Source: Candidatus Eiseniibacteriota bacterium (lineage in GTDB: Bacteria; Eisenbacteria; RBG-16-71-46; JABDJR01). Taken from it: a stretch of DNA of 64,000 nt. The notes under the pieces are model-generated. The model did no database searches. It was given only the letters and a program-made list of their open reading frames with translations, and was not told the origin of the DNA. Shown piece after piece: positions 31,147 through 52,615 of the stretch. The stretch is taken from positions 224,001 through 288,000 of the forward strand of contig CAVXKA010000001.1 in NCBI GenBank assembly GCA_963762255.1, read 5' to 3'. Numbering within the stretch: position 1 is the stretch's first letter; every line of letters begins with the position of its first letter. Made by a program: the position numbers and the translations under genes.

Positions 31147-33573
31147 CTAGGGCAGGAGCAGCATTCTGCGCGTCGCGGTCTGGCCGCCCACGTTCAGGTT
31201 GTAGAAGTAGATGCCGGGCGTGGCCGGCCGGCCGCCGTCGTCACGTCCGTCCCACTGCACGATCTGAATGCCTTCATCGACGTTACGGTCAAGAAGACCC
31301 CGGACCCGGCGGCCCGTTACGTCGAAGATATCGAGCACCGCGCGTCCGGCGCGCGACGCGCGGAATTCGATCGTGGTGCGCGGGCTGAAGGGATTCGGGT
31401 AGTTCTGAGCGAGATGAATGGTGACCGCGGGCTTCGGCGCGTCCCCCGGCACTCCGGTGGTGATGTCGGTGCAGTAGTTCCAGATCCCCACCGGAGGCAT
31501 CACCGGATTCGCGACGGAGTAGACGAGGTCATCGAGGTAGACGGACCGGTTCGGATCCCCCGTGCACTCGTACGTGTCGTTGATCAGGTACTTGTACCCC
31601 AGGCTCAACCCGGTGGAATCGGGGAAGACGACCGCCACCGTGTAGGTGTGGTCGCTCCCGGTCGCATCCGGCGAGACGCCGTCGTCGAACATGGCGGTGA
31701 GCGAGGGGACGCTGAAGTCGAGCGGCAGCCGGTCGCCGTTCACCCCCACCGACGTGATCGGACCGCCGAACCAGTAGTCGGTGTCCACGCGGAAGATGAC
31801 CTTGATGGCCTTGTCGGTGACCGAGCACCGGTCGATGCCGCGGGCGGGCAGTTCGAGCGGCCCCAGGGCGCCGCCTACCGTGTCGAAGGCTGCGTCGTTG
31901 AGGTAGACGTCGCGGTTCGACTGCCCGAGGCACTCGTACGCGCTGTTGAAGGTGAACTTGTAGTACACGGTCTTGTACGTCCCCACCGGGAAGCGCACCC
32001 TGACCGCGTAGATGCCGTCCCCCGCCGTCTGGTCGGGCGAGACACCGTTATCGGCCATGAAGATCCCCGGGGTGGCGAAGCTCGGAAGCGGCGCCTGGTC
32101 GCCGGTCACCCCTACCGTGTCGAGCGGTCCGGGCCCGAACAGGTTCGCGTTGACGCGGAAGAAAACGTCGATGGGGTGCTGGATCACGGCGTCGGGGTTG
32201 TCGTCGTTCCAGAAGGCGCGCAGCGTGTCACTGCTTCCGGTGTCGCTGGTGACCAGGAACTGACGGTTGGAGCGCGGCTCGAAACCCTGCACGTGGTGGA
32301 GGAATTTCCACTCGAGCGTGGCCTCCGCCTTGCCGGTCAGCGTGCTCTTCGAAACGCTCATCGGCACCGTCGTCACGTAGACCGAGTCCACGTCCGGGTC
32401 CAGCATCAGCGCGTTGTCCTTGGTCGGATTGAACGTCAAGGGGACCAGGCTCCCCTCGATGAAGAAGGAGTCGGGCGGGCTCGAGTGGGTGATCATGAAG
32501 ACGCTCATGTCCCCTTCGAACCGCAGGCGCTTCAGGATGAACGACTTCTTGTTCCCCACGCCGTCGTTGACGATCGGGTTCCCGGCCTGATCCTGAACGT
32601 TGGTCACGGTCACGTCGTAGAAGCTCGCCGAGGGCGATGCGTTGGAGCCCAGGGTCAAGTGGACGATGGCGGCGTTGGAGCCGTCCACTACCGCACCGGT
32701 CACGGTGTAGGTGGCGGGACCGGCGTGAACCGCGTAGTTCGTCGGGGTGGTGGCGCCGGTGCCCACCGGCTCATTGAACTCCACGTCGATCTTGTTGGTG
32801 GACGTGGCGATCTGCTTCTGCGCGTCGACGGTGAACCCGGTCGCCTTGGCGCTCTGCAGCAGGGGCGGGGTGGTGTCGGAGGTTCCCTGCACCACAAAGG
32901 TCATCATGCAGCTCATCTCCACCGGGACGGTCACGTCCCAGGTCGTGCTGCTCGGGGTGGAAAGCTGGACGGCGTCGCTGCACATGGCGTCCAGCGGGCC
33001 CTTGGTGGTGCCGTCCTGGGTGACCCAGAACTCGACGTGGAGGGTGTCACCCGCACCCACGCCCAGCGTGCTGAGAGAGATCTTCCCCTCGGTGAAGGTG
33101 CCGTCGGCCATCCCCAACCCGTTCGGCCCATCGCTCACCACGGTCCAGGCCGCGCCGCCCCATTGGTAGAGCACCTCGTAGTTGTACGAGTTGCAGGAGG
33201 TGGGGACGACGTCGTAGAGATAGAAGTCCGGCTTCTTGGGCACGGTGTTCCACGCGATCTTGCGCGAGAACGCATCGGTGGGGCCGCCGGCCACCGTGTT
33301 CTTATCGATGGCCAGTCCCAGGTTGATATCGCACCACGTGCCGTGGTCGTAGTCGAAGCCGAAGTAGAGGAAGTTGGTGTCGTTGGTCAGGTAGATGTTG
33401 CCCTGATCCAACTGGGTGAACTGGGTGTCACCCCCGTCCGCGTCCAGCAAGTTGGCGACGTTGAAGTCGTTGGTGCCGTCCACGACGATCGTTTGCGGAA
33501 CGAAAGCCCACGCCGGCGCCGCCAAGAGCAGAGCAGCGAAGAGCGGGAGCAAAGACGCGCGCAGAGTGCTCAT
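31147..33573 (-). CDS. Secreted multidomain carbohydrate-binding protein (DOMON/CBM9-like, Ig, CBM20/choice-of-anchor-X-like repeats, FlgD-Ig CTD)
   Basis: Signal peptide AWA; IVVDG..ND.NFLYFG; repeats V.FRV..VGV.GD..PL..M.D.G.SPD...D..Y.V.V.FP....YK...YEC....R; CTD LAQNYPNPF..IFDVTGRRVR..WDGRDD..PGIYFY; GGAGG RBS. Confidence 0.75.
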   Translation of the reverse strand: MSTLRASLLPLFAALLLAAPAWAFVPQTIVVDGTNDFNVANLLDADGGDTQFTQLDQGNIYLTNDTNFLYFGFDYDHGTWCDINLGLAIDKNTVAGGPTDAFSRKIAWNTVPKKPDFYLYDVVPTSCNSYNYEVLYQWGGAAWTVVSDGPNGLGMADGTFTEGKISLSTLGVGAGDTLHVEFWVTQDGTTKGPLDAMCSDAVQLSTPSSTTWDVTVPVEMSCMMTFVVQGTSDTTPPLLQSAKATGFTVDAQKQIATSTNKIDVEFNEPVGTGATTPTNYAVHAGPATYTVTGAVVDGSNAAIVHLTLGSNASPSASFYDVTVTNVQDQAGNPIVNDGVGNKKSFILKRLRFEGDMSVFMITHSSPPDSFFIEGSLVPLTFNPTKDNALMLDPDVDSVYVTTVPMSVSKSTLTGKAEATLEWKFLHHVQGFEPRSNRQFLVTSDTGSSDTLRAFWNDDNPDAVIQHPIDVFFRVNANLFGPGPLDTVGVTGDQAPLPSFATPGIFMADNGVSPDQTAGDGIYAVRVRFPVGTYKTVYYKFTFNSAYECLGQSNRDVYLNDAAFDTVGGALGPLELPARGIDRCSVTDKAIKVIFRVDTDYWFGGPITSVGVNGDRLPLDFSVPSLTAMFDDGVSPDATGSDHTYTVAVVFPDSTGLSLGYKYLINDTYECTGDPNRSVYLDDLVYSVANPVMPPVGIWNYCTDITTGVPGDAPKPAVTIHLAQNYPNPFSPRTTIEFRASRAGRAVLDIFDVTGRRVRGLLDRNVDEGIQIVQWDGRDDGGRPATPGIYFYNLNVGGQTATRRMLLLP

Positions 33574-33646
33574 TTCGAACCTCCCCCAACCGGGTCGGAC
33601 ATCCGTCCGACGGATGCGAAGCCTGCGGGTCGCTAGTGTGGCGTGG

Positions 33647-33660
33647 TTTGACCGGTCCAA
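33647..33660. promoter_or_regulatory. LacI-type operator 1 (TTTGACCGGTCCAA)
   Basis: Near-palindrome with central CG, matching sites at 46186 and 47347; downstream of the predicted promoter. Confidence 0.75.
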
Positions 33661-33690
33661 CAGAGCGAGTTGGGCGACCGGTGAAGCGAC

Positions 33691-33720
33691 ATTTTACTTC
33701 ATTTGGGGGGTTCGCGTCAA
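33691..33720 (-). promoter_or_regulatory. Sigma-70 promoter TTGACG-18-TAAAAT
   Basis: -35 at 33720-33715 and -10 at 33696-33691 on the minus strand. Confidence 0.65.
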
Positions 33721-33837
33721 CGATGCAGCGCGCGCTGCCAGCGCCATAACATCATGTTAAATAATCATTTACAAGAACATGAGAGGTCGGTTCTCCCGTC
33801 CCCCGGACGAAGCCGGGGGCGAGCCTAGCGCCCTCGG

Positions 33838-34677
33838 CTAGCCCTTCACGCCGCCGAGCGTCAACCCGCTCACGAGGAAGCGATTGAGGACAAGGAACAG
33901 CACCACCACCGGGATCGAGACCAGCACGCTACCCGCCGCGTAGTTGGCCCATTCGGTCTGAAACGTCCCGGCCAGGGCCTCCAGCCCCAAGGGAAGGGTG
34001 AAGAGGTTCTGGTTGGACAGAACGACGCGGGCCACGATGAACTCGGACCATGCCGCCATGAACGAGAAGAGCGCGGTGATGGTGAGTGCGGGCAAAGAGA
34101 GCGGGAGCACGATCCTCACGAACGCTCCCATCGGCGTCAGGCCGTCGATGAGCGCGGCCTCCTCAAGATCTCGGGGTATGGAATCGTAGTACCCCTTCAT
34201 CGTCCACACGCAGAACGGCAGTGCCGTGGTCACGTAGACGATCATGAGCCCCATGAGCGAGTTCAGGAGATTCAGCTTCTGCAGCAGCAGGTACATGGGA
34301 AGGAGGAGCATCGTGGCCGGGAACATCTGGGTGATCAGGAACGACGTGAGGCCGATCCGGTGCCCGGGGAAGCGGAATCGGCTGAACGCGTAGCCCGAGG
34401 TGGCCGCCAGCGCCACCCCGATCAGGGTCACCGAAAGCGATACGATGAGGCTGTTTTTGAGCCAGAGCAGGAAGGGCTTCTCGAAGAGGATGATCCGGTA
34501 CGCCTTGAAGCTCGCTCCTTCCGGGATCAGCCGCAGCGAGGTCGAATAGAGCTGGTCCCCGGGGCGCAGGGAAATCCCGATGATCTGGAGGATCGGGTAG
34601 AGGGTGAGAAGCGTCACCACGATGAGAGTCGCGTGGACCAGCGCCCGCTGCCACCGGGGGGCCTTGATCTCCCCCAT
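33838..34677 (-). CDS. malG: Maltose/maltodextrin ABC permease, MalG-like
   Basis: WLKNSL, GYAFSRFRFPG, EAA loop IPRDLEEAALIDG, TLPLGL, LVSGLTLGGVKG. Confidence 0.85.
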   Translation of the reverse strand: MGEIKAPRWQRALVHATLIVVTLLTLYPILQIIGISLRPGDQLYSTSLRLIPEGASFKAYRIILFEKPFLLWLKNSLIVSLSVTLIGVALAATSGYAFSRFRFPGHRIGLTSFLITQMFPATMLLLPMYLLLQKLNLLNSLMGLMIVYVTTALPFCVWTMKGYYDSIPRDLEEAALIDGLTPMGAFVRIVLPLSLPALTITALFSFMAAWSEFIVARVVLSNQNLFTLPLGLEALAGTFQTEWANYAAGSVLVSIPVVVLFLVLNRFLVSGLTLGGVKG

Positions 34678-35555
34678 CAGTACACCGACTCCGTGCCCCG
34701 GGAGAAGCGCATGGTGATGAACACGAAGGCCAGCAACAGGAGGAAGATCACGATGGAAAACGCGGCGGCGTACCCGTAGCGGTACAGGGTGAATGCCTCG
34801 TTGTAGACGTAGGTGACCAGAATGTGGCTCTTATTGGCGGGCTTTCCGCCGTTGGTCACCAGCCAGATCACGTTGAGGTTGTTGAAGGTCCAGATGGTGC
34901 CGAGAACGATGGCCGGCACCAGCACCGGCTTCAGGAGCGGCAGCGTCACGTGGCGCAGCTTCCGCCACCAGTTGGCGCCGTCGATGGCGGCCACCTCATA
35001 GAGCTCGTGGGGGATCGACTGGAGCCCCCCGAGCGCAATCACCATCATGAACGGAAAGCCGAGCCAGATATTGGCGATGATGGCGGCGCTGAAGGCGCCG
35101 GTGGCGTCGGAGAGCCAGGGCACTTGCGGCAAACCGAACTTGTGGAGCCACAAGTTCACCGCCCCGTACTCGTAGTTGAAGAGTCCCCGCCAGGTCAGCG
35201 CAGAAATGTACTGCGGGATGGCCCAGGGGAGAATCAAGAGCGCCCGGTACGCCCATTGGCCGCGGATGGGGCGATTGAGCAAGATGGCCAGGGCGACACC
35301 GAAGGTGACGTGGAAGAAGAGGTTCACCACCGTCCACACCACCGTCTTCAGGAACACCCAGTACATCGGCGCGCTCGTGAAGAGTTCCACGAAGTTCCGC
35401 AATCCGACGAACTCGGGGTTGCGGAACGTGTAGAGGTTCATGTTGGAGAAGGCGATGCGGAAGTTGTAGAGGAACGGGTAGGCCACGACCAGGACCATGA
35501 CCAGGATGGACGGCAGGACGAGGGCGTAAGCGAGAGGAATGCTGCGACGGTTCAT
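34677..35555 (-). CDS. malF: Maltose/maltodextrin ABC permease, MalF-like
   Basis: FVGLRNF, LILPWAIP, WLGFPFMM..GGLQSIP.ELYE.A.IDGA, FNNLNVI, ILVTYVY. Confidence 0.85.
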   Translation of the reverse strand: MNRRSIPLAYALVLPSILVMVLVVAYPFLYNFRIAFSNMNLYTFRNPEFVGLRNFVELFTSAPMYWVFLKTVVWTVVNLFFHVTFGVALAILLNRPIRGQWAYRALLILPWAIPQYISALTWRGLFNYEYGAVNLWLHKFGLPQVPWLSDATGAFSAAIIANIWLGFPFMMVIALGGLQSIPHELYEVAAIDGANWWRKLRHVTLPLLKPVLVPAIVLGTIWTFNNLNVIWLVTNGGKPANKSHILVTYVYNEAFTLYRYGYAAAFSIVIFLLLLAFVFITMRFSRGTESVY

Positions 35556-36838
35556 CGCTTCATGGACTCGATCTTCTCCACCGCGTCCGCCTGCATGTCG
35601 TGCGCCGCCGCCTCGGGAGTCTTGCTCCCGTTCATCACCGCCTGCATGTTCGGGCGCATGGCGTCCCAGATCACCCGCATCTCAGGCACCACCGGCATGC
35701 GACGCCCTACCTTCCACTGCTCCAGCGATGCCAGCAGCGTTGCGTCGCCGCGAATCTCCGGCCGGTCGTAGGCGGCTTGGATGCTGGGGAGAATGCCCAG
35801 CTCGACCCCGAACCGCGCGGAAATGTCGGCCGAGGTGAGGTAGTCCAGCAGTTCTTTCACCACCGCCTCCTTGGCGGCGGGGAGGTTCACGTTCACCGAG
35901 TATCCCTTGCTCCCGATCATGGGCGCGGCCCAGGGTCCACCGGGCTCCGCGCGCGGGATGCGGGCGAGCTTGAACGGCACCCCGGCCTGCTGGTAATCGC
36001 GGAAGGACCAGGGACCGTTCACGATCATGGCCACCTTGCTCCCCTTGAACAGAGTGTCCATGAGTTGGTAGTCGCACTCCCTGGGCATGACCTCGTATTT
36101 GTCGCGCAACTCCCGGAGGAACGTCAGAGCCTTCACGGTGGCCGGACTGTCGAGGGTGGGCCGCCGCTCGGCGTCCATAACCCAGCCCCCGTAAGCCGTG
36201 ATGAAGGGAACGAGCCAGAAGGGCTCGTTGAACTCGAAGGCCAGCCCGTACACATCGACGCGTCCCGACGACTTCTTCATGGCCGCCTGGGCCGCCCGGA
36301 TCAGGTCCGCGAAGGTCTCGGGCGGGGTGCCGACCAGTTCCGTGTTGTAGAGCAGGTTCAAGTGGTTGCCGACCTGGTCGGGAAGCGCCCACACGTGTCC
36401 ATCAAGGGTATCGAGCGCGGCGGGCAGGAACCGCGCCCATGTCGCGGGGGGCAGGAACTCATCGAGCGGGCGGATGATCTGGAGAATGGAGAACGGACCT
36501 ACCTGGTCCGACGGACCGTACACGAGATCCGGTCCCCCACCGGCCAGCGCGGCGGTCTGGTACTGGCTGCGCAGGTTCTCGGTGTCGTAGTGCACGAGCG
36601 AGACCGTCAGCCCCGGGTGGCTCGCCTGGTACTCGGCGAGGATCGCCTCCATCACCGCCTTCTCCTGCGGGTCGCGCTGCTCCCAGATGACGATCTCCAC
36701 CGGGCCGGCGGGCTTGTCTCCCCCGCTCTTCTTGCCGCCGCATCCGCTAAGAAGCAGACCCGGGATCGCGGCCAGAAGCACCAGGGCCGCCGCGAACCCG
36801 TGACCGAGCCGTGACCTGTGCCGGAGTCGCATGGGCAT
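35552..36838 (-). CDS. malE: Maltodextrin-binding ABC substrate-binding lipoprotein (MalE/MdxE-like)
   Basis: Lipobox LSGC; GGGPDLVYGPSD, LLYNTELV..PP.TF, AMIVNGPW, MPVVPEM..IW. Confidence 0.8.
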   Translation of the reverse strand: MPMRLRHRSRLGHGFAAALVLLAAIPGLLLSGCGGKKSGGDKPAGPVEIVIWEQRDPQEKAVMEAILAEYQASHPGLTVSLVHYDTENLRSQYQTAALAGGGPDLVYGPSDQVGPFSILQIIRPLDEFLPPATWARFLPAALDTLDGHVWALPDQVGNHLNLLYNTELVGTPPETFADLIRAAQAAMKKSSGRVDVYGLAFEFNEPFWLVPFITAYGGWVMDAERRPTLDSPATVKALTFLRELRDKYEVMPRECDYQLMDTLFKGSKVAMIVNGPWSFRDYQQAGVPFKLARIPRAEPGGPWAAPMIGSKGYSVNVNLPAAKEAVVKELLDYLTSADISARFGVELGILPSIQAAYDRPEIRGDATLLASLEQWKVGRRMPVVPEMRVIWDAMRPNMQAVMNGSKTPEAAAHDMQADAVEKIESMKR

Positions 36839-36845
36839 TCCCTTC

Positions 36846-37322
36846 TTAAGGAACAACGAGCAACGAGTTCTTGCCGCCGTACCCATCGTCGGCGGACTCC
36901 GGGTTCGCGGGGTCCGTCTTCCACTCGGAGCCGTTCACCACGAACTTGTATTGGTAGCTCCCGGGATCCAGAGGCTTCACGACAAACCACACTCCACCAT
37001 CCCCCTTCGTCAAGGGATCAGCCGAGGTGTTCCAACTGTTGAAGGTCCCGGCGAGGCTCACGTTGGCGGCGCTGGGGGCACTGAGCGTGAACCGCCACCC
37101 CGCGTCGGTCTTGGTGGGAGCCTGGGCGGCGCCACCTGCTTGGGCCTGGCCCGCCGGAGCCTGTACCGCCGGGGCGGCCGGAGCCGCGCCTCCGCTCGGT
37201 TGAGCGAGGCCGGGGTACGGGCGCGTGCGATCGCAACCCGAGGCCACGAGCAGAAGGGCCAGAGCTGCCGCGATGCCCGGAAGAACGCGGCCGCTCACCG
37301 ACAAGATCGTGCGTGACTTCAT
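36846..37322 (-). CDS. Small CBM48 (glycogen-binding, AMPK-beta-like) lipoprotein
   Basis: Lipobox ASGC; VSLAGTFNSW..GVW..L.PG.YQYKFVVNG..W.TDPANP..DGYGG.NS; GGAGG RBS. Confidence 0.85.
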   Translation of the reverse strand: MKSRTILSVSGRVLPGIAAALALLLVASGCDRTRPYPGLAQPSGGAAPAAPAVQAPAGQAQAGGAAQAPTKTDAGWRFTLSAPSAANVSLAGTFNSWNTSADPLTKGDGGVWFVVKPLDPGSYQYKFVVNGSEWKTDPANPESADDGYGGKNSLLVVP

Positions 37323-37383
37323 GGATGTCCTCCATCGAGGCGGGGCGAGCGGCTTCATGCCGCCCACCCGCGCCGGCGAGGGA

Positions 37384-39633
37384 TCATTGCTGAGCTACGG
37401 TGAACTGCTGGCGCCGCTCGTCGAGGGTGAAGACATACGTCCCCGTCCCCGGGAACTGCACCTTGAGCGCGGTCCCTTGCCCGCTCACCGGCCGCACCGG
37501 GAACGTCCCGGGGAGCGTGAGCAGCGTGTTCTCGTCACCGCCGTAATCTGGCGGGGTGTCGAACGCGCCGTCGGTCAGGAACTTGAAGAACTTCGGCGCC
37601 CCGATCATATCCGCCGTGATCGCGAGCGTGACCGTCCACACGCAAGGCGGGGACTCGACCATCTGCGGGGCCTCGGCGGGATCCCACGAGGTGAACTCGC
37701 CGACGATCTGGATCGTGTTGAAGGCCGAAGTCCCGGCCGCCAGGGTGATGCTGCCCAGGTCCACATTGGCGCCCGCCACCGCCACACCGGAGCGGGTCTC
37801 TTTGACGAAGCAGGGAGAGGAGATCTCCACCTTGTACGTGCCGTTGGGCAGCGTCTGGAATCGGAACGTCCGCGCGGACGCGTCGCTCTTGACCGTGGCC
37901 AGCGGCGTTGTGGCCGTGCCCTGGTACAGGTCCACCGTCGCCTGCGGGTAGGGGCCGGTGGAAAGACCCGCGAACGCTACCGTCCCGGTGATCCCGCCGG
38001 TGGGCACGGTTCCCAAAAGGGTCGCGGAGAACTCGAGCCCGGACTCGTCGAGCCGGAACACGTAGTCCCCACCGGTCAGCACCGAGATCTTGAGCGCCGT
38101 CCCCTGACCGGAAACTGGCATCACGGCATAAGTCCCCGGCAGAGGCAGTGTCTCGCTCTCCGATCCGCCGTAGTCCAGCGGGCTGTCGAAGGCGCCGCCG
38201 GTGACGAACTTGAAGTTGTAGGTACCGGGTTGAATGGTGAGGGTGTCGACCCAGACGCAGTTCGGGAGTTTGGTCATGGACGGGAATTGCAGGCTCCACG
38301 CGTTGAAATCGCCCAGAACCTGGATCTTCGTGAACGCGCTCTCGCAGCCAGGCACCAGGGTGATCGTCCCGATATCGAAGACCTCGCCCCTCACGTACGC
38401 GACCGCGTTATGGCGCCCCTCGAGGTACCCCGGTGCGGTGACGACGACGTCGTAGTTCCCGCTGTTGAGCCCCTTGAAGGCGAACGCGCTGTCGGTCTCC
38501 GCGCTTGCCAGAACCGTCGTCGTTCCCGCGGTCCGGACCTTCACGGTGGCGGTGGGCCGTGTCGAAGGATGATCGGCGAACTGCACCACGCCGCTCAAAC
38601 TGCCGGTCAACTCGGCCAGGGTAATTGCGCCGAGATCCGTGTCCTGGCCGTTGGTGAAGGCCACGCCGGTTCGGCGCTCCTGCGCGAAATCGGTCGCGGT
38701 GATCACGACGTCGTAGCTGCCGGTCGCCAACCCAACGAATGCAAACGCGCTGTCGGTCTGCGCGCTCTGCACCTCCGTCGAGGATCCCGCGTTGAAGACC
38801 GTGACCGTGGCTTGCGGCCGCGGGCGCGGATTCCCCTGGAAGAGCACCACACCCTTGAGCGCTCCACCGGGCACTTCGAGCGTGACGTCACCCAGGCGAG
38901 ATTCCCGATTATGCCGGACGACGATACCACCGAGGCGCTGCGTCAGGTACCCGGGGCTCGTCACCGTGACCTCGTAGAGCCCGACCCCGACATCGATGAA
39001 GCTGAACTCGCCGGTCTGAGGATCGGTGGAGGCGATCAACGAACCCGCCTCCGCCCCCGGAGGGGTGATGGAGAACTCGCCCGTCCCCTCGTTCAGCACG
39101 ATCTGGTATTCCCCGGCGGTCTTCACCGAGATCTTGAGTGCGGTTCCCTGCCCCGAGACAGGGAGGGCGGGATAGGTTCCGGGCACGACCAGCACATCGT
39201 TTTCGCTTCCGCCGTAGTCGGGCGGACTGTCGAACGCCCCTTCGGTGACGAATTTGAACAAGTACGTGCCGGCCTGGATGGTCAGGGTGTCGATCCAGAC
39301 GCACTCCTGATCCTTGGTCATGAGCGGAGCCAGGGTCAGATCCCACGAGGTGAACTCGCCGGCGATCTGGATCTTGGTGAACTGGCTCTGACACACCCCC
39401 GCCGAGGGGGCGGCCACCACCACGCGGGCGCTGGGATAGGGCGGCGTACCGAGTCCCTGGAACACGACGCGTCCCACGATGTCCCCGCTGCCGCCGGGGC
39501 CCTCGATGCGCGTGACATCGGGGTTGTCCCCGCAGCCACCGAGCCATCCCAGGACGGCCGTCACGAGGAGCGCCGCGGCGATTCGAGTCGCCCGTCGCCG
39601 GGTCCTATGCAAAGGATCGGATGCCATCCACAT
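37384..39633 (-). CDS. Surface lipoprotein with three SusE/SusF-like starch-binding repeats and carboxypeptidase-regulatory-like domains
   Basis: Lipobox LGGC; 3x F..IQ..G(E/D)F..W....M.....CVW..TL.I...FKF.T.GAFD.P.DYGG.E..PGT....PVSGQGTALK; interspersed F.F.GL..G.Y.V..TA domains. Confidence 0.75.
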   Translation of the reverse strand: MWMASDPLHRTRRRATRIAAALLVTAVLGWLGGCGDNPDVTRIEGPGGSGDIVGRVVFQGLGTPPYPSARVVVAAPSAGVCQSQFTKIQIAGEFTSWDLTLAPLMTKDQECVWIDTLTIQAGTYLFKFVTEGAFDSPPDYGGSENDVLVVPGTYPALPVSGQGTALKISVKTAGEYQIVLNEGTGEFSITPPGAEAGSLIASTDPQTGEFSFIDVGVGLYEVTVTSPGYLTQRLGGIVVRHNRESRLGDVTLEVPGGALKGVVLFQGNPRPRPQATVTVFNAGSSTEVQSAQTDSAFAFVGLATGSYDVVITATDFAQERRTGVAFTNGQDTDLGAITLAELTGSLSGVVQFADHPSTRPTATVKVRTAGTTTVLASAETDSAFAFKGLNSGNYDVVVTAPGYLEGRHNAVAYVRGEVFDIGTITLVPGCESAFTKIQVLGDFNAWSLQFPSMTKLPNCVWVDTLTIQPGTYNFKFVTGGAFDSPLDYGGSESETLPLPGTYAVMPVSGQGTALKISVLTGGDYVFRLDESGLEFSATLLGTVPTGGITGTVAFAGLSTGPYPQATVDLYQGTATTPLATVKSDASARTFRFQTLPNGTYKVEISSPCFVKETRSGVAVAGANVDLGSITLAAGTSAFNTIQIVGEFTSWDPAEAPQMVESPPCVWTVTLAITADMIGAPKFFKFLTDGAFDTPPDYGGDENTLLTLPGTFPVRPVSGQGTALKVQFPGTGTYVFTLDERRQQFTVAQQ

Positions 39634-39671
39634 GCCCTGTCCCTCTTCCCGGTCCGCGCGGGACCGGTGGG

Positions 39672-40073: not shown

Positions 40074-40090
40074 GAAAGATCACCTCTCCA

Positions 40091-42271
40091 TCAGAACTTG
40101 ATAATCGCCTCGAGCTGGAAGCGCTTCTCGTCTTCCAACTCCTGCTCCGCGCTGCGGACGGTGCCCGCCATGTTCAGGTACTGGGTCTTCGCCGCGTTGC
40201 CGTCGGCTCCCCGCTCGAAAATGAACATATCCCGGCCGATGTGCTTGTACTCGTTGGCCACCCCGTCGATCACCCACGGGTCCACTCCCCAGGACAGGCC
40301 CATCTCCATGGCCGGCGTGAACCGGTACTTGAGCTCCACGAAATGCGAGGTGAAGGTGTCCTTGAGCCGGAGCACCGGATCGTCGTAACGGACAATACGC
40401 GTGTCGGTGTTGAGACCGAGCCGCCGGGTGAGATCGAGGTGGAACGCGATCTGGTTGTCCCAGTACTTGGGCTTACGGCTCAAGCCGGTCGAATTCAGGA
40501 TTGCCCAGTACTCCACCGAGACATTGCGCGGGCGGTAGAAGGTCCACTTGGCGTGCGGCTTCCACGAGACCACGTCCTCGCCGCCCAGCATCACCAGACG
40601 GTCCACCGTGACCACGTGCTCGCCCTGCTCCAGCCAGAAGTTGTTGCTGTCGAACCAGAACTGATCGGTCCACGTCGCGCGGCGGTCGTAGCGGAAATCG
40701 TAGTAGTCCACCTTGAGCTCGGCTTCCCAGGGCCAGAGCTTCCATTCCGCTCCGTCGAACTTCACCCCGGTCCGGTACGTGGTCACCGCGTTGTAGCGGG
40801 TCTCGGGCGCGTACGTGCGATTGACGAGATCCGCGTCCTGGAACTCCATGGCGCCGGTCAGGTGCCAGCCTCGATAGGCGAAGTAGTGCACTCCGGCCGT
40901 GAACCGGCGGCTGGTGTTGAGCCGGAGGGTGCGGCTGTTCTCTCCACGCAGGGTCTGGGTGGTATCCGCGCCGGTGCCGTTGACGGAATCGATCCCGGAG
41001 TAGGTGATCTGGCGGTACTCGCCCTTGCCCGTTCCGATCCAGCTCTCGCCGCCGAGGACCTCGCCGAACAACTCGACGCCGGAGGGATCGTTCCGATAGC
41101 GGAGATCCAACCCGCCGCCGTGCCAGCTCTCCACCGTGCGCGGGAAGTAGCGGACGAAAAGACGGCGGGAATCTGCGGAGAGCGCTTGGTCGTCCACGAT
41201 CTGGACCAGCGCCCCCGGGTTCCGCCCGCGATCCACTCGGTAGGAGACTCCGGCGGTCAGACTCTCTCCGAGCGGGCGCGTCCACCGTGTGGCCAGCACG
41301 TTCTTGTTGTTGTCGGACGTGTTGACGTTGTACCGGCTGGTCCCGAACGCGGTGCCGCTCGGGGCGCCGATCACATCGCTCTTCAGGGTCTGGAGCGGAA
41401 CGTCCTGCGGGCTGTCGACGCCGCCGGTCCGGAAATCATCCGAGTACAGAAGGCGCCCCTCGAACTTGCCGAACTGCCGCCATGCCATCACTCCCTGCTG
41501 GTTGTAGCCCCAGGAGTGGTGGTACAGGCCGACGTCGCCGACCAGGTGCAGCGGATCGTCCCACACGCCCACCGAATCGTTGTCGAAGGCGACGAGGTTG
41601 ATGTCCTCGTTCTGCAGGAGGAGGCTCCCCCGGTCGAAGCGGAGGTTCGACTCCCAGAGTTGCACGTTCTGGTTCTGGTTGTTGATGTTGGTGAGAACGT
41701 GGGCGGTCAGATCTTCGTTCACGCGGATATTGAAGTCGAGGTCGATGTCGAAGTTGGGCCGGTCCAGATTCCACTCGGGGTTGCTCCCGGGGATCTTGCG
41801 GTCCTGCATGAGCACGATGTAGCGGGATCCCAGGAACACCTTGGGGGAGAGCTCGGTGTTGGAGGTGGCTTTCAGGACCACCACTTTTCCGTCCCCGCCG
41901 ATCTTCACCAGCGAGTTGCCGAAGTCGCCGCCGGTGACCGGATTCTCCGGATCCGCCACCCATTGTCCGTCGACCACGAACTTGTACTGGTGCTCGCCGG
42001 CGGTGAGCGGAACAACGACGGACCACACCCCGTCTCCACTCCGGGTCAAGGGCGCGACGGTGGCATTCCAATCGTTGAAATCGCCGGCCAGGCTTACCTG
42101 GCCCGCGTAGGAATCGGTGTAGGAGAACCGGACGCCTCCCGCCGCCGATTCGACTCCCGCCCCGGCCGGGGCCGCCCAAGGCAGCGCCAGCACCAGGACG
42201 AGCAGCGCCCATCCGATCCGCCACAGGCCCCTCGGCGGGGCCGTCCGAAACGAGGTCGGGATCGATCGCAT
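40091..42271 (-). CDS. CBM48-fused putative outer-membrane beta-barrel protein
   Basis: Signal peptide; CBM48 VSLAGDFNDW..HQYKFVVDGQWVADPENP; amphipathic beta strands; terminal FQLEAIIKF beta-signal. Confidence 0.7.
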   Translation of the reverse strand: MRSIPTSFRTAPPRGLWRIGWALLVLVLALPWAAPAGAGVESAAGGVRFSYTDSYAGQVSLAGDFNDWNATVAPLTRSGDGVWSVVVPLTAGEHQYKFVVDGQWVADPENPVTGGDFGNSLVKIGGDGKVVVLKATSNTELSPKVFLGSRYIVLMQDRKIPGSNPEWNLDRPNFDIDLDFNIRVNEDLTAHVLTNINNQNQNVQLWESNLRFDRGSLLLQNEDINLVAFDNDSVGVWDDPLHLVGDVGLYHHSWGYNQQGVMAWRQFGKFEGRLLYSDDFRTGGVDSPQDVPLQTLKSDVIGAPSGTAFGTSRYNVNTSDNNKNVLATRWTRPLGESLTAGVSYRVDRGRNPGALVQIVDDQALSADSRRLFVRYFPRTVESWHGGGLDLRYRNDPSGVELFGEVLGGESWIGTGKGEYRQITYSGIDSVNGTGADTTQTLRGENSRTLRLNTSRRFTAGVHYFAYRGWHLTGAMEFQDADLVNRTYAPETRYNAVTTYRTGVKFDGAEWKLWPWEAELKVDYYDFRYDRRATWTDQFWFDSNNFWLEQGEHVVTVDRLVMLGGEDVVSWKPHAKWTFYRPRNVSVEYWAILNSTGLSRKPKYWDNQIAFHLDLTRRLGLNTDTRIVRYDDPVLRLKDTFTSHFVELKYRFTPAMEMGLSWGVDPWVIDGVANEYKHIGRDMFIFERGADGNAAKTQYLNMAGTVRSAEQELEDEKRFQLEAIIKF

Positions 42272-43857
42272 CAGAAGGTCCCCTTCAAAGTGAGACGGAC
42301 CAGATCCTTGTTGTCGGCGCTTCCCTCGAGGTTTCCCTCGTAGACGGGGTTGCTTCCGCCGCCGATCCAGAACGGACCGTAGGCCAGGAACAGCTCCAGG
42401 TTGGGGCGGGGCCGGTACTGAAGCTCGCTGAAGAGCCCCTTCCTCACCCGGGCGGGGTCGTTGCCGAACGTGAAACGGTTGTACATCTTGACCGTGCTGC
42501 TGATGTTCACCGAGGTTTCGAACGAACCGAGTTCCTTCTGGAAGACGGTGCTGAGATCCCGGATCCGGAACTGCAAGCGCATCCAGGCCAACTTGTTCTC
42601 GACCTGCATCTCGGCGAAGACGTCGTCGTTGTCGGTGACCTGCTTGATCGTGGTGTTTCCGTCGTTCTGCCAGTCACGGGTGGTGCGCTTGCGGTAGAAC
42701 AGCTTGCTGGTGAACCCGTTCACGAACTCGACGTAGGCTTCGGAGTAGAACTCGGTGACATGCCGGCTCTGGTTCACGCGCTTGGTATAGGAGAGGTAGT
42801 TGTTCGAAAGCGTGATGGCCCGCCCCGGAACCAGGTACCAGGTGTTGACGTAGTAGCCGTTCTCGTCGCTGTTGCCGTCGCCGAGCTGGTTGCGGAACTG
42901 GGGCCCGTAGTACCAGCAACTGGGGGCGACGTTGAGATACCCGACCCGATAGTCCCCCACCCGTAGAGACCGGATCTCCGCTTTCACCACCGCGTCGTCG
43001 GGAAGCCCGTCCTCGGGGTGGCGGAGGCTGAACTTCGAGACGTCCATCGCGTCGCTGCGGTAGGGGGTGCCGACCGTGCGCTGCTGGCCTTCCGCATACT
43101 CGAGCGAGAAATCGATGTTGCTCCACGTGTAGCGCAGGTCGCCGGCCCAGACTTCGGTGACCGAAGCCTGATCCACCCCCGATCGCTTCACCGTGTTCTT
43201 GTGGTTCCAGGTGACGCCGCTACGGAGCTTGCCGCCGAAGAACTCGCGCCGGAGTCGGCCGATGTAGGCGTCGTCGGTGGCGGTCGGCTTGTCGGGAAGA
43301 GAACCGTTGGAGGGATTGCTCTGGGAAGAAAAGTCGCTCGCGATCAGGTTGATGTAGGTGGAGCCCTTGACCCCCAACATGGAATCGCGCGACCAGAGGT
43401 TAAGCCGCACGCCTTGCGCGTTGCCGCCGTCGTTGGAGGATCCCCCCTGGACGACCTGGATGAGGTGGTTGTCCACCCAGAAACGATCCTGGCGGCTGAA
43501 CAGGTAGGTCTCGATCCCCTTTCCGTTCACGTCCCGGTTGTAGCGCACGTGGGCTTCTCGGTACTGGAAGAGCGGTCTGCGGTTGCTGTTGCTCCCGGTG
43601 TTCCACTCCGCCTCGAACTTGGTGAATGCCTCCAGACCCGGGATCGGCTGGCTGAACAGCCGGAACTGCGTGTTGTTGAAGGTGTCGTTGCTGTTGCTGT
43701 CGAAGTCCCACTCGTAGCGGCGGTCCTGCTTTCGGACGTCGAGCTGGAAGACGTACTCGCCCTCAAGGCGGGTGAACGCCAGGACGGGGAGGGCCCCGGC
43801 CAGCAGGGCGGAGACGGCGAGCGCGGCAACGAGGAGGCGGGGCGAGCGCGGGGTCAT
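42271..43857 (-). CDS. Putative outer-membrane beta-barrel (porin-like) protein
   Basis: Signal peptide VLA; alternating aromatic/hydrophobic strands; terminal VRLTLKGTF; translationally coupled on both sides. Confidence 0.7.
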   Translation of the reverse strand: MTPRSPRLLVAALAVSALLAGALPVLAFTRLEGEYVFQLDVRKQDRRYEWDFDSNSNDTFNNTQFRLFSQPIPGLEAFTKFEAEWNTGSNSNRRPLFQYREAHVRYNRDVNGKGIETYLFSRQDRFWVDNHLIQVVQGGSSNDGGNAQGVRLNLWSRDSMLGVKGSTYINLIASDFSSQSNPSNGSLPDKPTATDDAYIGRLRREFFGGKLRSGVTWNHKNTVKRSGVDQASVTEVWAGDLRYTWSNIDFSLEYAEGQQRTVGTPYRSDAMDVSKFSLRHPEDGLPDDAVVKAEIRSLRVGDYRVGYLNVAPSCWYYGPQFRNQLGDGNSDENGYYVNTWYLVPGRAITLSNNYLSYTKRVNQSRHVTEFYSEAYVEFVNGFTSKLFYRKRTTRDWQNDGNTTIKQVTDNDDVFAEMQVENKLAWMRLQFRIRDLSTVFQKELGSFETSVNISSTVKMYNRFTFGNDPARVRKGLFSELQYRPRPNLELFLAYGPFWIGGGSNPVYEGNLEGSADNKDLVRLTLKGTF

Positions 43858-44732: not shown

Positions 44733-44772
44733 CTCATCGCCCTCCCGCCGTTGGAACGATCCGGCGCCCGCA

Positions 44773-46131
44773 TCACCGGACCACCGCGATGCCGCGCCGG
44801 GCCTGGTCCTGGTCGGGCTCCAGGACGATCTGAAGGACGTAGATGCCGGCCTTGAGCAGCATCCCGTCGTCGTCGCGTCCGTCGAAGACGTTGGCCACAT
44901 GGGGTTCCGGAGCCTCCAGCTCGGCGGGCGTGAAGGCGTAGCTGTCATAGATCGTCCGCACGCGCTCGCCGTTCATATCGAAAACCCGCGCGGTGAACTT
45001 GATGCGCCGGGTGCGCCGCAGGTTCTCGTCGGTGATCCGCGGCGTCACGGTGAACCGGAATCCAAGGACATCGCCGAGCTCGGGAGCGATCGCCTTGGGC
45101 ACCGCCGTGAACTGATCGATCTGCAGGGCTTGCCCACGCACCGGCGGCGGCACGAAGAAGTAGCTCTCGACGTAGGCGGCATACTCCTCGGGAGTCTGCT
45201 GCGCGGAGGGCACCCGAACCGGAACGCCGAAATCGGCCACATGGTCCGGCGTGGCTCCCCCCGCAGCATTCACACGGTCGAGGGGGATGCGCACGAAGTT
45301 GTCCAGCACCACCGGGACCGCCGAGTCGACTTGCGTACCGCTGATGTTGTCGGGAGCGGTGTCGGGCCCGCCCCCGCCGTCGCCGCCGGTCGTGACCCAC
45401 GCGGCGAGCCGGATCTCCGTGACATCCGTGGGCATGACATAGACCGAGTCGCCGTAGTCGGCGCTGTACTCCCATGTCCCCTTGCCGAGGAAGATCGTAT
45501 CCCAGGGGATCGCCGCCTCCATGGCCCGGTTGGGAAGATCGCCGTTGAAGTTGGCGACGGTGAGGAAGCTCTCGGTAGCGACCTGGCTGTCCCGATTGGG
45601 CCCGGTGTAAGTCCAGAGCTGGGGAACGGTGTTGCGGTCCCAGGTGGCAAGGAAGACCTCGGGATTGAATCCGTTGTCGAACGAGACCGAGCGCCGCCAC
45701 CCTCCTTCGATCGACGAGAACGAGGTCCACCCCGGGTTCTGGCGGTCGGGCAGGGTGTCGAAGAAGATCATGATGTTGTTGTTGAAGCTGTACCCCTCGA
45801 CCGCCACATAGAGAAAGCGTGCGTCCCACGTGATGCGAATGTTGTTGATGTCGTTGAAGCGGCCCCACTGGGAGTCGATCGCGCTCTCCTCGGGCGCCCC
45901 ATTCGGCGTGCGCTGAAAGATCGTCTCGTCGTCCAAATAATCCGCGGTCGACCCGTCGATGACGATTCGATCGGTGAGGTCGATCGCGGTGCCGGCGCGA
46001 GCGATCGGAGCGGACAAGAAGAGAGCGAGAATGACCACCGCCGGAAGTGCCCGGCAGGCGGGCAAACCGCCGCGCAGCGCACTCTGCGAGGCCGTTCGCA
46101 GCCAAGAGCGGAGGGACGAATGGAGGTTCAC
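44773..46131 (-). CDS. Secreted DOMON/CBM9-like protein with type-B-like C-terminal sorting domain
   Basis: Signal peptide ARA; IVIDG..DI..IRITWDARFLYVAV..MEAAIPW; CTD VFDMNGERVRT..FDGRDDDG..AGIYVL..IAVVR. Confidence 0.7.
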   Translation of the reverse strand: MNLHSSLRSWLRTASQSALRGGLPACRALPAVVILALFLSAPIARAGTAIDLTDRIVIDGSTADYLDDETIFQRTPNGAPEESAIDSQWGRFNDINNIRITWDARFLYVAVEGYSFNNNIMIFFDTLPDRQNPGWTSFSSIEGGWRRSVSFDNGFNPEVFLATWDRNTVPQLWTYTGPNRDSQVATESFLTVANFNGDLPNRAMEAAIPWDTIFLGKGTWEYSADYGDSVYVMPTDVTEIRLAAWVTTGGDGGGGPDTAPDNISGTQVDSAVPVVLDNFVRIPLDRVNAAGGATPDHVADFGVPVRVPSAQQTPEEYAAYVESYFFVPPPVRGQALQIDQFTAVPKAIAPELGDVLGFRFTVTPRITDENLRRTRRIKFTARVFDMNGERVRTIYDSYAFTPAELEAPEPHVANVFDGRDDDGMLLKAGIYVLQIVLEPDQDQARRGIAVVR

Positions 46132-46185
46132 GCGTTCAAGCCTTCCGAGTGAGGGCGAGCCTGATGCGGAGAGGATAGGGTCCCG

Positions 46186-46199
46186 TTGGACCGCTCCAA
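46186..46199. promoter_or_regulatory. LacI-type operator 2 (TTGGACCGCTCCAA)
   Basis: Palindrome immediately downstream of the -10 box, over the predicted TSS. Confidence 0.8.
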
Positions 46200-46228
46200 A
46201 AACTAGTGGAGAGGTCGCCGGGTGTCAA
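46200..46228 (-). promoter_or_regulatory. Sigma-70 promoter TTGACA-17-TAGTTT for the glucan operon
   Basis: Perfect -35 at 46228-46223, 17-bp spacer, -10 at 46205-46200. Confidence 0.75.
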
Positions 46229-46268
46229 GCCATCGGGGACATCGGAGGAGGATCCGTGCGCCGACCGG

Positions 46269-47309
46269 TCAGGGTTGGGACACGGGCGGTGGGCCGCTTG
46301 ACTCGCGCGCCACCAACCGGGTGGGAACGACCCGCTCCACCGGTTCCGGATCCCGGAGTTCGAGGATCTCGAGCAGGAGCTGGGTGGCCATGCGGCCGAT
46401 GTCGTAGATGGGCTGCGAGAGGGTCGTCAGACGGGGGCGCACGTAGGTGGTCAGCCGGATGTCGTCCGCTCCAACGACCGTCAAGTCCTCTGGGACGTGC
46501 AGTCCGAACTCCTCCTGCGCCACGCGGAGCGCTCCCAGGGCCATCATGTCGTTGGCCGCCATCAGCGCCGTCGGGCGAGGGCGACGTACGAGAAGCGCCC
46601 GCGCCGCCTCGGCCCCACTCGATTCTGAAAAATTTCCCCAAAGACGAAGGTCGTCCTCCATGGCGATTCCCGCTTCGGCGAGGCCGTCCAGAAATCCGAG
46701 GCTGCGGTCCTGCCCCACCGTCGTGTTCTCGAGCCCGCCGATGAACGCGATGCGGCGGTGCCCGAGCGAGACGAGGTGACCGACCATCTCGCGGGCCCCG
46801 GACCGGTTGTCCGCGTAGACCGCGCTCGCTCCCGGCATGCGGGTGTTGACCAGCACCAGCGGCGTCCGCAATTCGATCAACTCGCGGACGTAGGCATCCT
46901 CCTTGATCGTGCCGAGCAGCAGCATGCCGTCGGCGGCGCCCTGCCGAAGCAGGCGGCGATGGGTCGCGTGTTCGAGGAAGCGCGCGTTGGCCATTTCGAT
47001 CACGAGTCGATACCCGGCCTCGGAGAGCACGTCGGAAATGCCGCTGATGGCCTCGGCGAAATAGACGTCGGCGAGCACGTGCGATCCGGTGGCGGGCAGG
47101 ATGACCGCCGCGGCGTTGGCGCGCCGGCGCGCGAGGCCGCGGGCCATGGTGTTGGGCTGGTAGCCCGCTGTCTCGATCACTTCGAGCACGCGGTCCCGGG
47201 TCACGGCGGTGATGCGCGGGTCGCCGTTGATGACGAGCGACACCGTCGAGCGCGAGACGCCGGCCAGGCGCGCGATGTCCCGAATGGTGGGCTTCGCAGT
47301 TTCGTGCAC
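46269..47309 (-). CDS. LacI-family transcriptional repressor
   Basis: TIRDIARLAGVSRSTVSLVIN, YQPNTMARGL, LGHRRIAFI, NDMMALG, VPEDLTVVGADD, LTTLSQP; GTG start after a GGAGAGG RBS. Confidence 0.94.
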   Translation of the reverse strand: MHETAKPTIRDIARLAGVSRSTVSLVINGDPRITAVTRDRVLEVIETAGYQPNTMARGLARRRANAAAVILPATGSHVLADVYFAEAISGISDVLSEAGYRLVIEMANARFLEHATHRRLLRQGAADGMLLLGTIKEDAYVRELIELRTPLVLVNTRMPGASAVYADNRSGAREMVGHLVSLGHRRIAFIGGLENTTVGQDRSLGFLDGLAEAGIAMEDDLRLWGNFSESSGAEAARALLVRRPRPTALMAANDMMALGALRVAQEEFGLHVPEDLTVVGADDIRLTTYVRPRLTTLSQPIYDIGRMATQLLLEILELRDPEPVERVVPTRLVARESSGPPPVSQP

Positions 47310-47346
47310 GAGAATCCTCTCCGAAAAACCGCGGGGATTCGTTGCG

Positions 47347-47365
47347 TTGGATCGGTCCAATTATA
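47347..47365 (-). promoter_or_regulatory. LacI-type operator 3 (TTGGATCGGTCCAA) abutting a TATAAT -10 box: autoregulation
   Basis: Minus strand reads TATAATTGGACCGATCCAA, upstream of lacI. Confidence 0.75.
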
Positions 47366-52518: not shown

Positions 52519-52580
52519 CTCCTTTACCTCCTTGCTCATCCCTGCAGCGCTTCCAGTCTGAGTGCCGCACAGCGAGAGAG

Positions 52581-52608
52581 CCGTGGGGCCGGAAATCCGG
52601 CCCCACGG
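52581..52608 (-). terminator. Strong hairpin between the giant gene and the barrel gene (no U tract)
   Basis: CCGTGGGGCCGG-aaat-CCGGCCCCACGG perfect 12-bp stem. Confidence 0.55.
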
Positions 52609-52615
52609 TCCTCGA

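Follow-up and report, generated by a model that had tools for sequence, protein, structure and literature searches.

A conserved alpha-glucan locus with an undescribed outer-membrane module in an Eisenbacteria genome

By what route could a bacterium take up starch or glycogen through a locus that encodes neither a SusC/SusD pair nor a maltoporin? To our knowledge, few outer-membrane routes for polysaccharides have been described, namely SusCD-type TonB-dependent pairs, the porins LamB, ChiP and CymA, and the TonB-dependent MalA. The question is raised by a 64,000-nucleotide (nt) stretch of contig CAVXKA010000001.1 of Candidatus Eiseniibacteriota bacterium (hereafter the window), in which 12 co-directional genes, all on the minus strand, fill positions 31147-47360 (Table 1). 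An original prediction, made from the letters of the sequence, had read this run as a glycogen and maltodextrin uptake system that fits neither the Sus nor the Mal model, and our analysis supports that reading: the searches gave no TonB-dependent receptor or LamB identity, and the gene order is conserved. We find that this is a real, conserved and previously undescribed alpha-glucan locus, that is, a polysaccharide utilisation locus whose outer-membrane module is new. That it serves alpha-glucan utilisation, taken on its own, we hold to be highly probable. That it is a LacI-repressed locus which captures and imports alpha-1,4/1,6-glucans (glycogen, starch, maltodextrin) by the steps proposed below we consider probable, with clearly less confidence.

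Two large barrels and carbohydrate-binding modules

The genes P4 and P5 encode the proteins that we call barrel A and barrel B. AlphaFold2 models built on 40-sequence alignments, with strand counts read from the DSSP strings, predict a large barrel in each. In the model of barrel A (predicted local distance difference test, pLDDT, 84.0; predicted template-modelling score, pTM, 0.75), about 24 strands extend between residue 28 and the C-terminal Phe, and because the mature protein opens with strand 1, at residue 28 immediately after the signal peptide, it would have no room for an N-terminal plug. The model of barrel B (pLDDT 85.8, pTM 0.76) starts with a sandwich of the carbohydrate-binding module (CBM) family CBM48 at residues 40-124 and a low-confidence linker, followed by about 22-24 strands over residues 144-661, helices at 679-686 and 691-714, and a last strand at 717-725 ending in Phe. 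Pfam recognises the N-terminal module (CBM_48 43.3 bits, cut-off 22.4; AMPK1_CBM 52.4 bits; residues 37-119) and nothing beyond it.

Besides this CBM48, neither protein had a match in Pfam (E<=0.01) or NCBIfam, and Plug (PF07715), TonB_dep_Rec (PF00593), LamB (PF02264) and SusD were all unmatched; as a control, a genuine TonB-dependent receptor from a related locus (L025:1693-4626) matched Plug and TonB_dep_Rec in the same kind of scan. The family profile of barrel A found no match among PDB sequences, and that of barrel B found only the CBM48 of AMPK-beta (1e-16), pullulanase and branching enzyme, its barrel part remaining unmatched. Relaxing the threshold to E<=1 gave no match to Pfam barrel families among 40 relatives of barrel A, save for three weak Porin_4 matches. 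Foldseek searches of the PDB with both barrels returned generic large barrels only (TM 0.2-0.5, identity 6-13%), drawn from TonB-dependent transporter barrels, FimD/PapC ushers, AlgE, LptD and porins. Because the Pfam, PDB-profile and Foldseek searches gave no such family, barrels A and B are, judged by sequence and model, neither TonB-dependent receptors nor LamB nor AlgE, and the earlier description of them as unrecognised plug-less barrels holds.

Particular identities were rejected on the following grounds: a TonB-dependent receptor on the missing Plug and TonB_dep_Rec matches and on the lack of an N-terminal domain in barrel A; a LamB maltoporin on the unmatched PF02264 and the roughly 24 predicted strands; and AlgE/Alginate_exp (PF13372) on the absence of any match to it at E<=1 among the 40 barrel A relatives, AlgE being only a low-TM Foldseek match. 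The idea that the two barrels are paralogs of each other was dropped at an hhalign probability of 7%. TonB/ExbBD genes were not seen among the window open reading frames (ORFs) scanned, and the barrels offer no plug that could bear a TonB box. In the full-text literature, whose coverage leaves out most subscription journals, we found no published description of barrel A or B, of a CBM48-fused outer-membrane barrel or of this type of locus, and the public names of barrel relatives are merely 'hypothetical protein' or 'glycogen-binding domain-containing protein'.

The binding modules point to alpha-glucans. In agreement with the original prediction, CBM48 modules are present on barrel B and on the two lipoproteins P6 and P8, with Pfam scores above the gathering scores (Table 1). 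In barrel B, residues W68, K97, W104 and N119 are invariant across 40 sequences, and the motifs FNDW/YKF/GQW align with FNNW/YKF/GQW of AMPK beta1/2, that is, with the W/K/W positions of the glycogen site, which we take to be the sugar-binding residues of AMPK beta. The P6 family likewise keeps Cys20, W63, K101, W109 and N127 invariant in 41 sequences. When a profile of the barrel alone (A5, 39 sequences) was searched against 1.84 billion proteins, it recovered 324 representatives (E<=1e-3), of which 261 reach E<=1e-10. Of 150 listed matches, 55 (the near-full-length and the most distant ones) were scanned for domains, and 54 of these carry N-terminal CBM48/AMPK modules, in one of them mainly CBM20; the remaining one, probably truncated, has no CBM. 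Because 54 of the 55 scanned carry modules of this type, the barrel B family is, on domain evidence, dedicated to alpha-glucans. The notion of a general glycan platform was dropped, since fusions to other CBM types were sought and none was found among the 55.

P7, P8 and MalE carry lipoboxes. P7 gives weak AMPK1_CBM, X25 and CBM_48 matches (35.6 bits over the whole protein), with no single stretch passing the cut-off, and contains three repeats of about 105 aa starting at residues 85, 434 and 638. It had been called a triple SusE/F-like lipoprotein: the three CBM48/X25-like repeats bear out the triple part, whereas the SusF_SusE family (PF16411) is unmatched in P7 and gave weak matches only in two distant proteins, the L062 GH13 (glycoside hydrolase family 13) protein and P0332. 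Any likeness of P7 to SusE/SusF would thus appear to be functional only, that of a lipoprotein with tandem starch-binding modules. No protein of the locus matches the SusD family either, the neighbour of barrel B being a 133-aa CBM48 lipoprotein, and the predicted absence of SusC/SusD was borne out for the window ORFs scanned. As an observation in its own right, the P6 family has a conserved basic/proline stretch between the lipidated Cys and the CBM48, [LF]-[IL]-K-x-R-[LIV]-P-x-P. Its residues R28 and P32 do not vary between phyla, and the stretch may act as a signal for docking or sorting.

Table 1. Genes and candidate operators of the locus, in window coordinates
Feature	Position	Strand	Evidence and remarks
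LacI-family repressor	46269-47360	-	PF00356 63.9 bits, PF13377 124.9 bits
P2, secreted, C-terminal FlgD-Ig/T9SS-like module	44773-46131	-	No direct Pfam/NCBIfam match
P3, PorV/PorQ-family barrel, 292 aa	43854-44732	-	NF033709 63.5 bits (cut-off 90)
P4 (barrel A), about 24 strands	42271-43857	-	AlphaFold model; no family match
P5 (barrel B), N-terminal CBM48 and barrel of about 22-24 strands	40091-42271	-	Pfam, AlphaFold model
P6, CBM48 lipoprotein, 133 aa	39672-40073	-	AMPK1_CBM 29.0 bits (cut-off 26.8)
P7, 749-aa lipoprotein, three CBM48/X25-like repeats and four CarboxypepD_reg	37384-39633	-	Pfam, repeats, lipobox
P8, CBM48 lipoprotein	36846-37322	-	CBM_48 48.4 bits (above gathering score), lipobox ASGC
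MalE-like lipidated solute-binding protein	35552-36838	-	SBP_bac_8 105.5 bits; NF007011 130 bits (cut-off 291); lipobox LSGC
MalF-like permease	34677-35555	-	NF008232 182.9 bits (cut-off 392)
MalG-like permease	33838-34677	-	NF008231 193.9 bits (cut-off 261)
P12, 808-aa T9SS-CTD protein, Big_5 and choice-of-anchor-X motifs	31147-33573	-	TIGR04183 35.1 bits (cut-off 23)
Candidate operator 1, TTGGATCGGTCCAA	47347..47360		5' end of lacI; one mismatch to TTGGACCGGTCCAA; position kept in L002, L011, L068
Candidate operator 2	46186..46199		lacI-P2 intergenic; position kept in L001, L002, L004, L011, L068
Candidate operator 3, TTTGACCGGTCCAA	33647..33660		Between sigma-70-like promoter (33720-33691) and P12; kept in L011, L068
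T9SS, type IX secretion system; CTD, C-terminal domain.

Relatives, regulation and partner proteins

The arrangement recurs across phyla. GTDB species genomes were scanned with the barrel B alignment, which matched 602 stretches, 546 of them encoding a relative; the best 80 were kept as 78 loci, all from metagenome-assembled genomes (MAGs), and synteny was counted by tblastn of 16 window proteins against the 78 loci. At E<=1e-3 the homologs form 190 clusters for barrel B and 153 for barrel A, and the named ones are mostly Candidatus Eisenbacteria. The loci are labelled Eisenbacteria (22), Krumholzibacteriota (10), Cloacimonadota (7), 'Gemmatimonadota' MAGs (4), Fibrobacteraceae (4), WOR-3 (3), Zixibacteria (1) and Hydrothermota (1), with 26 unlabelled; closest to the window is L001 (83% identity over barrel B), followed by L011 and L068 (63-64%, labelled Eisenbacteria), so that by its relatives, too, the window most likely belongs to a genome of Eisenbacteria type.

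Barrel A lies directly upstream of barrel B in 73 of the 74 loci with room for it, the exception, L048, having a weak match just outside the distance limit. A P6-like gene is present in 70 of 78 loci and in 67 of these 70 is a 128-153-aa ORF right after barrel B; in the other three the ORF calls were wrong. P7 homologs follow P6 in many loci. A PorV-like gene was found in 62 of 69 loci with room and was not detected in three WOR-3, one Zixibacteria, one Hydrothermota and two unlabelled loci; a P2 homolog was found in 43 of 64 loci with room, MalE in 38 of 78 and a P12 homolog above 250 bits in 35 of 78. The conserved core is thus the PorV-like barrel, barrel A, CBM48-barrel B and the small CBM48 lipoprotein, often headed by a CTD protein. 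Because the order of this core is repeated in several phyla, the arrangement greatly exceeds what chance would give, and accidental juxtaposition is excluded; the adjacency of A and B and the place of P6 also answer the check on gene order that had been set in advance with the original prediction.

Degradative enzymes surround the core in many relatives. By tblastn, 41 of the 78 loci contain a GH13 gene. Of the loci 18 kb or longer, which also number 41, 32 encode GH13 or GH57. MalK-like genes scoring over 250 bits occur in 14 of 78. GH13 alpha-amylases with two to six CBM48/X25/CBM53 modules are encoded in L006, L007, L009, L010, L018, L026, L027, L034, L039, L062 and L071, a second GH13 with a FlgD-Ig CTD in L014 and L026, and a GH57 with CBM48 and CBM20 in L051; other flanking genes encode multi-CBM48 proteins, CBM20-esterases and MalK. 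Because most of the GH13 enzymes with CBM48 carry a plain signal peptide and neither a lipobox nor a CTD (14 proteins inspected by eye, several with uncertain starts), their architecture suggests that they are periplasmic and act on chains long enough to need CBMs. No GH13 or GH57 was found within 10 kb of the cassette in L004, L005, L011, L037 and L068, and these amylase-less loci include three (L004, L011 and L068) of the five that bear LacI; the window's branch keeps just the binding and transport parts in the locus. In that branch, P7 with its three CBM-like repeats occupies the place that multi-CBM48 proteins and GH13 take in other Eisenbacteria loci.

Three further observations concern the surroundings of the cassette. 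Esterase-family proteins lie near it in Eisenbacteria loci (L009:18295-19500, L026:17454-18731 and L007:1302-2528), two of them with an N-terminal CBM20, and may act on esterified or modified starch. In L025, also Eisenbacteria, the control receptor named above is a SusC-like TonB-dependent receptor (CarboxypepD_reg, Plug and TonB_dep_Rec) lying directly upstream of the P2 homolog; a 440-aa protein unmatched in Pfam comes next after the receptor. In a WOR-3 MAG (L061:2211-6275), the A-B-P6 cassette stands beside trehalose synthesis genes (GT20/trehalose phosphatase, TreT), not MalEFG or GH13.

Within the window, gene starts were placed by signal peptides and ribosome-binding context, the high GC content (63-70%) producing many spurious ORFs that overlap real genes. 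The original prediction had described a tight co-directional run with a LacI gene at its head, and every gene it named was found on the minus strand in the span given. Because neighbouring genes from P2 to MalG are tightly spaced (-4 to +61 nt, three pairs overlapping by 1-4 nt), they appear to form a single operon. The spacer between lacI and P2 measures 137 nt, and that between MalG and P12 measures 264 nt and contains a terminator-like hairpin, a predicted sigma-70-like promoter (TTGACG-18-TAAAAT) and an operator-like palindrome. This palindrome, TTGGACCGGTCCAA, is 14 bp long with a central CG; with at most one mismatch it occurs at three sites in the window against 0.01 expected (0 of 100 shuffles reach three), all at 5' ends, those of P12, P2 and lacI. 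Across the related loci (1.28 Mb), matches with at most one mismatch are confined to L001, L002, L004, L011 and L068. These five are precisely the loci in which a LacI homolog is present, and the matches fall ahead of lacI, ahead of P2 and in the MalG-P12 spacer. Because the palindrome co-occurs with the LacI homolog at matching positions in related loci, regulation of the locus by LacI, as originally predicted, is well supported by comparative sequence evidence. The repressor has the usual LacI/GalR build, an N-terminal helix-turn-helix domain and a core resembling periplasmic binding proteins; its best NCBIfam matches are CytR, CcpA and RbsR, all below cut-offs.

The gene order also suggests how the secreted proteins might be held. 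P3 scores below the cut-off of PorV_fam (NF033709), and all 33 of its relatives scanned match that family at E<=1e-3, together with PorV2 in 31, PorV and PorQ in 11 each and PorP in 5; the P3 family profile matches the solved Flavobacterium johnsoniae PorV (6h3i_F, E 3.4e-11). By these profile matches P3, which had been labelled a PorV/PorP-like barrel, is homologous to PorV and belongs to a divergent, shorter subfamily. The C-terminus of P2 shows FlgD_ig in 9 of 31 relatives and aligns with the CTD of P12 (hhalign 93.9%), and P12 itself exceeds the cut-off of the T9SS type A sorting domain TIGR04183, with FlgD_ig in 27 of 27 relatives, Por_Secre_tail in 17 and Big_5 in 19. The remainder of both proteins is less telling. 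The N-terminal domain of P2 had no Pfam or NCBIfam match, none of 31 relatives matches any domain outside the C-terminus and no PDB profile matched there; the label 'DOMON-like' was therefore not confirmed, Pfam DOMON and CBM9_1 being unmatched in P2 and found in 0 of 31 relatives. The one lead is an Atlas score of 0.88 to clusters with CBM9_1 in 30-35% of their members. P12 had been described as a second CTD-secreted CBM protein, of which the CTD was confirmed and the CBM was not (X25 in 1 of 27 relatives, CBM_20 in 1 of 27, Atlas score 0.83 to CBM20/CTD clusters).

In Krumholzibacteria and Fibrobacteraceae loci, the gene ahead of the PorV-like barrel encodes, instead of P2, a giant protein of 1505-2040 aa with Glucodextran_C, in which about 125 residues at the C-terminal end share homology with the corresponding module of P2 (hhalign 97.6%). 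Because the giant protein replaces P2 and yet shares this C-terminus, the cargo seems to vary while the C-terminal module and the barrel that follows persist. That P2 is a short form of the giant protein was considered and rejected, since the hhalign match covers the C-terminal module alone and not Glucodextran_C. In PMC12618676, genes for T9SS type B cargo of F. johnsoniae are described as often linked to genes for their cognate PorP/SprF shuttles, and according to PMC10994853 carrier proteins stay attached to their surface adhesins. Since P3 is homologous to PorV, the upstream cargo keeps its C-terminal module and linked cargo-shuttle genes are known, P2 and P3 are, by analogy, a candidate cargo-carrier pair that would fix P2 to the cell surface, with P3 as a candidate dedicated carrier or anchor. 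The window holds another cargo-then-PorV-family pair, at 50899-62992 on the minus strand: a 3458-aa CTD protein with a FlgD-Ig-like C-terminus (52616-62992), then a protein with PorV_fam, thrombospondin repeats and OmpA (50899-52539; NF033709 100 bits, cut-off 90; best NCBIfam match TraB-like, 135 bits, below cut-off).

For the ATP-binding cassette (ABC) importer, the best NCBIfam matches of the three proteins are MalE, MalF and MalG, each below its cut-off (Table 1).

Proposed route and its alternatives

From the gene content, CBM type, conservation, genomic context and operator motifs, all directly observed, we infer the following route. Without inducer, LacI would sit on the TTGGACCGGTCCAA-like operators before lacI, the P2-to-MalG operon and P12. 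P2 and P12 would leave the cell by a type IX-like route through their C-terminal domains, and P2 would be held at the surface by its cognate PorV/PorQ-like barrel P3, as T9SS type B cargo is by PorP/SprF shuttles. Glucan chains would be bound by the CBM48 modules of barrel B, P6, P7 and P8 and would cross the outer membrane through plug-less barrel A, barrel B or both, probably as a pair and wide enough for long oligosaccharides. Periplasmic GH13 enzymes bearing CBM48 would then trim the chains, their genes lying in the locus in most relatives and elsewhere, or not at all, in this genome, and lipid-anchored MalE would pass maltodextrins to MalFG, with MalK presumably encoded elsewhere. More tentatively, and as a possibility that we rate below even chances, barrels A and B with P6 may form a new TonB-independent glycan translocon, in which two unrelated barrels of about 24 strands, one with a carbohydrate-binding module of its own, thread long alpha-glucans for 'selfish' periplasmic degradation. 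On this view, several FCB-group candidate phyla in which SusCD-type loci for the substrate are missing would have the translocon as their ancestral starch gate.

Several points weigh against this route. The scanned window ORFs include no glycoside hydrolase, TonB-dependent receptor, SusD or LamB, and when catalytic domains of GH13 and GH57 taken from related loci were searched against the 64 kb by tblastn, there were 0 matches; the best tblastn match to MalK (82.8 bits) is the ABC-2 ATPase, so that MalK is also absent from the window, and T9SS core genes are missing from it as well. In the WOR-3, Zixibacteria and Hydrothermota loci with room, neither the PorV-like gene nor P2 was found (0 of 5). 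The receptor beside the cassette in L025 makes it possible that a conventional gate is encoded elsewhere in the genome. In the model of barrel B, long loops or the helix at 691-714 could block the pore. Orientation is a further concern. Barrels with an even number of strands usually have their N-terminal domain in the periplasm, so the CBM48 on barrel B may not bind at the cell surface. The periplasmic side is also the default for lipoproteins of the outer membrane, and P6, P7 and P8 may for this reason lack the surface position of their Sus counterparts. Two topologies are therefore conceivable, one with these three lipoproteins and the barrel B CBM48 turned outward as in Sus, and one in which they retain chains in the periplasm with P2 and P12 as the surface capture proteins.

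The same observations can be read in other ways. The barrels might be platforms that hold CBM proteins for sticking to starch or glycogen particles, with entry through porins or a TonB-dependent receptor encoded elsewhere. The CBM on barrel B, the carrier-type barrel P3, the receptor adjoining the cassette in L025 and pores that may be closed would all suit such a role; yet two barrels of this size far exceed what anchoring needs, the A-B pair persists even in phyla in which P2 and P3 were not detected, a TonB-dependent receptor was found in just one of the annotated loci, and the presence of CBM48 on GH13 enzymes of periplasmic type implies that the periplasm receives long chains. We consider this reading unlikely. 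Less likely again is that P3, A and B form a lineage-specific secretion or anchoring accessory to type IX secretion for P2 and P12, the CBMs merely targeting secreted proteins to glucan. The PorV/PorQ-like nature of P3, an upstream cargo that always has the same C-terminal module and the other cargo-then-PorV-family pair in the window speak for it. Known T9SS carriers, however, are small 14-strand barrels, A-B-P6 occurs without detectable P2 or P3 in the WOR-3, Zixibacteria and Hydrothermota loci, and the consistent fusion of the scanned members of the barrel B family to an alpha-glucan CBM fits substrate handling better than protein export.

Lastly, the locus might export or anchor an alpha-glucan made by the cell itself, such as a capsule or surface storage polymer, with the barrels acting as AlgE/Wza-type exporters. 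The UniRef name of one barrel A relative begins 'Alginate expo...', AlgE is among the Foldseek matches and the WOR-3 locus L061 adjoins trehalose synthesis genes, but the locus contains no glycosyltransferase or polymerase, Pfam Alginate_exp is unmatched among the barrel A relatives as noted above, and the partners of the barrels are a MalEFG importer, a catabolic-type LacI repressor and degradative GH13/GH57 enzymes. We judge export very improbable, and capture and import of alpha-glucans remains the reading that we favour.

Known systems and flanking genes

Read in this way, the locus shares features with several known systems and coincides with none. As in the Bacteroides Sus, a single co-regulated locus encodes several non-catalytic starch-binding lipoproteins and an outer-membrane barrel beside a small lipoprotein gene, and relatives of the locus encode both surface-type (CTD) and periplasmic-type amylases. 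Unlike Sus, the locus gives no Pfam match to a TonB-dependent barrel, Plug, SusD or SusE/F; it has two large barrels that are mutually unrelated by hhalign, one of them CBM-fused; and its regulator is LacI rather than SusR. The inner-membrane step of Sus is a major facilitator superfamily transporter, whereas here it is the MalEFG ABC importer. With the enterobacterial maltose system the locus has in common a MalE/F/G-like binding-protein-dependent importer and, as we infer, a dedicated outer-membrane step for maltodextrins. LamB has 18 strands and enterobacterial maltose control rests on the activator MalT; the locus differs in having no LamB match, barrels of about 24 predicted strands, a lipidated MalE, no MalK and a LacI-type repressor.

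The pairing of P2 with P3 resembles T9SS cargo and carrier (PorV for type A, PorP/SprF for type B) in that a CTD gene lies directly upstream of a PorV/PorQ/PorP-family gene. It departs from such pairs in that P3, at 292 aa, is shorter than the solved PorV chain (402 aa) and scores below the NCBIfam cut-off, in a host that is not Bacteroidota, in a window devoid of T9SS core genes and in being embedded in a sugar-uptake operon. As folds, the barrels resemble FimD/PapC ushers and TonB-dependent barrels, with a similar strand number and, for barrel A, best TM values of TMq 0.51 to FimD (3rfz_B) and 0.45 to BtuB; identity is 6-11%, usher plug, periplasmic domain and pilus genes are all lacking, and the likeness is one that any large barrel would have. 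MalA of Caulobacter is a TonB/ExbBD-dependent maltodextrin receptor. It is comparable as an outer-membrane barrel dedicated to maltodextrins above porin size (PMC6851124), and differs in that the barrels of the locus have no Plug or TonB_dep_Rec and that barrel A lacks an N-terminal domain; the mentions of CBM48 in PMC6851124 concern GH9 cellulases and are unrelated to the locus.

If the proposed route is true, the locus would represent a conserved alternative route for alpha-glucans with a new outer-membrane architecture, a CBM-fused giant barrel paired with another barrel. It would also serve as a genomic marker of starch or glycogen use in uncultured bacteria of soil, sediment and digesters, and the logic of T9SS cargo-carrier pairs would reach beyond Bacteroidota. 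The barrels and CBM proteins are concrete, expressible targets for structural work.

Directly upstream of lacI, at 47361-50155 on the minus strand, the window encodes a fusion of an ABC-2 permease and a CPBP intramembrane protease (NF041647 621 bits, cut-off 435) together with an ATPase, and these neighbours are also present in L002 and L011. Downstream of P12 follow genes for a HAD phosphatase, RuvB, QueA and Tgt. The first of these, a HAD-IA hydrolase that adjoins P12 at 30388-31035 on the minus strand, has as best matches phosphoglycolate phosphatase and, weakly, beta-phosphoglucomutase, all below cut-offs; it could be part of maltose or glucan metabolism, or unrelated to the locus.

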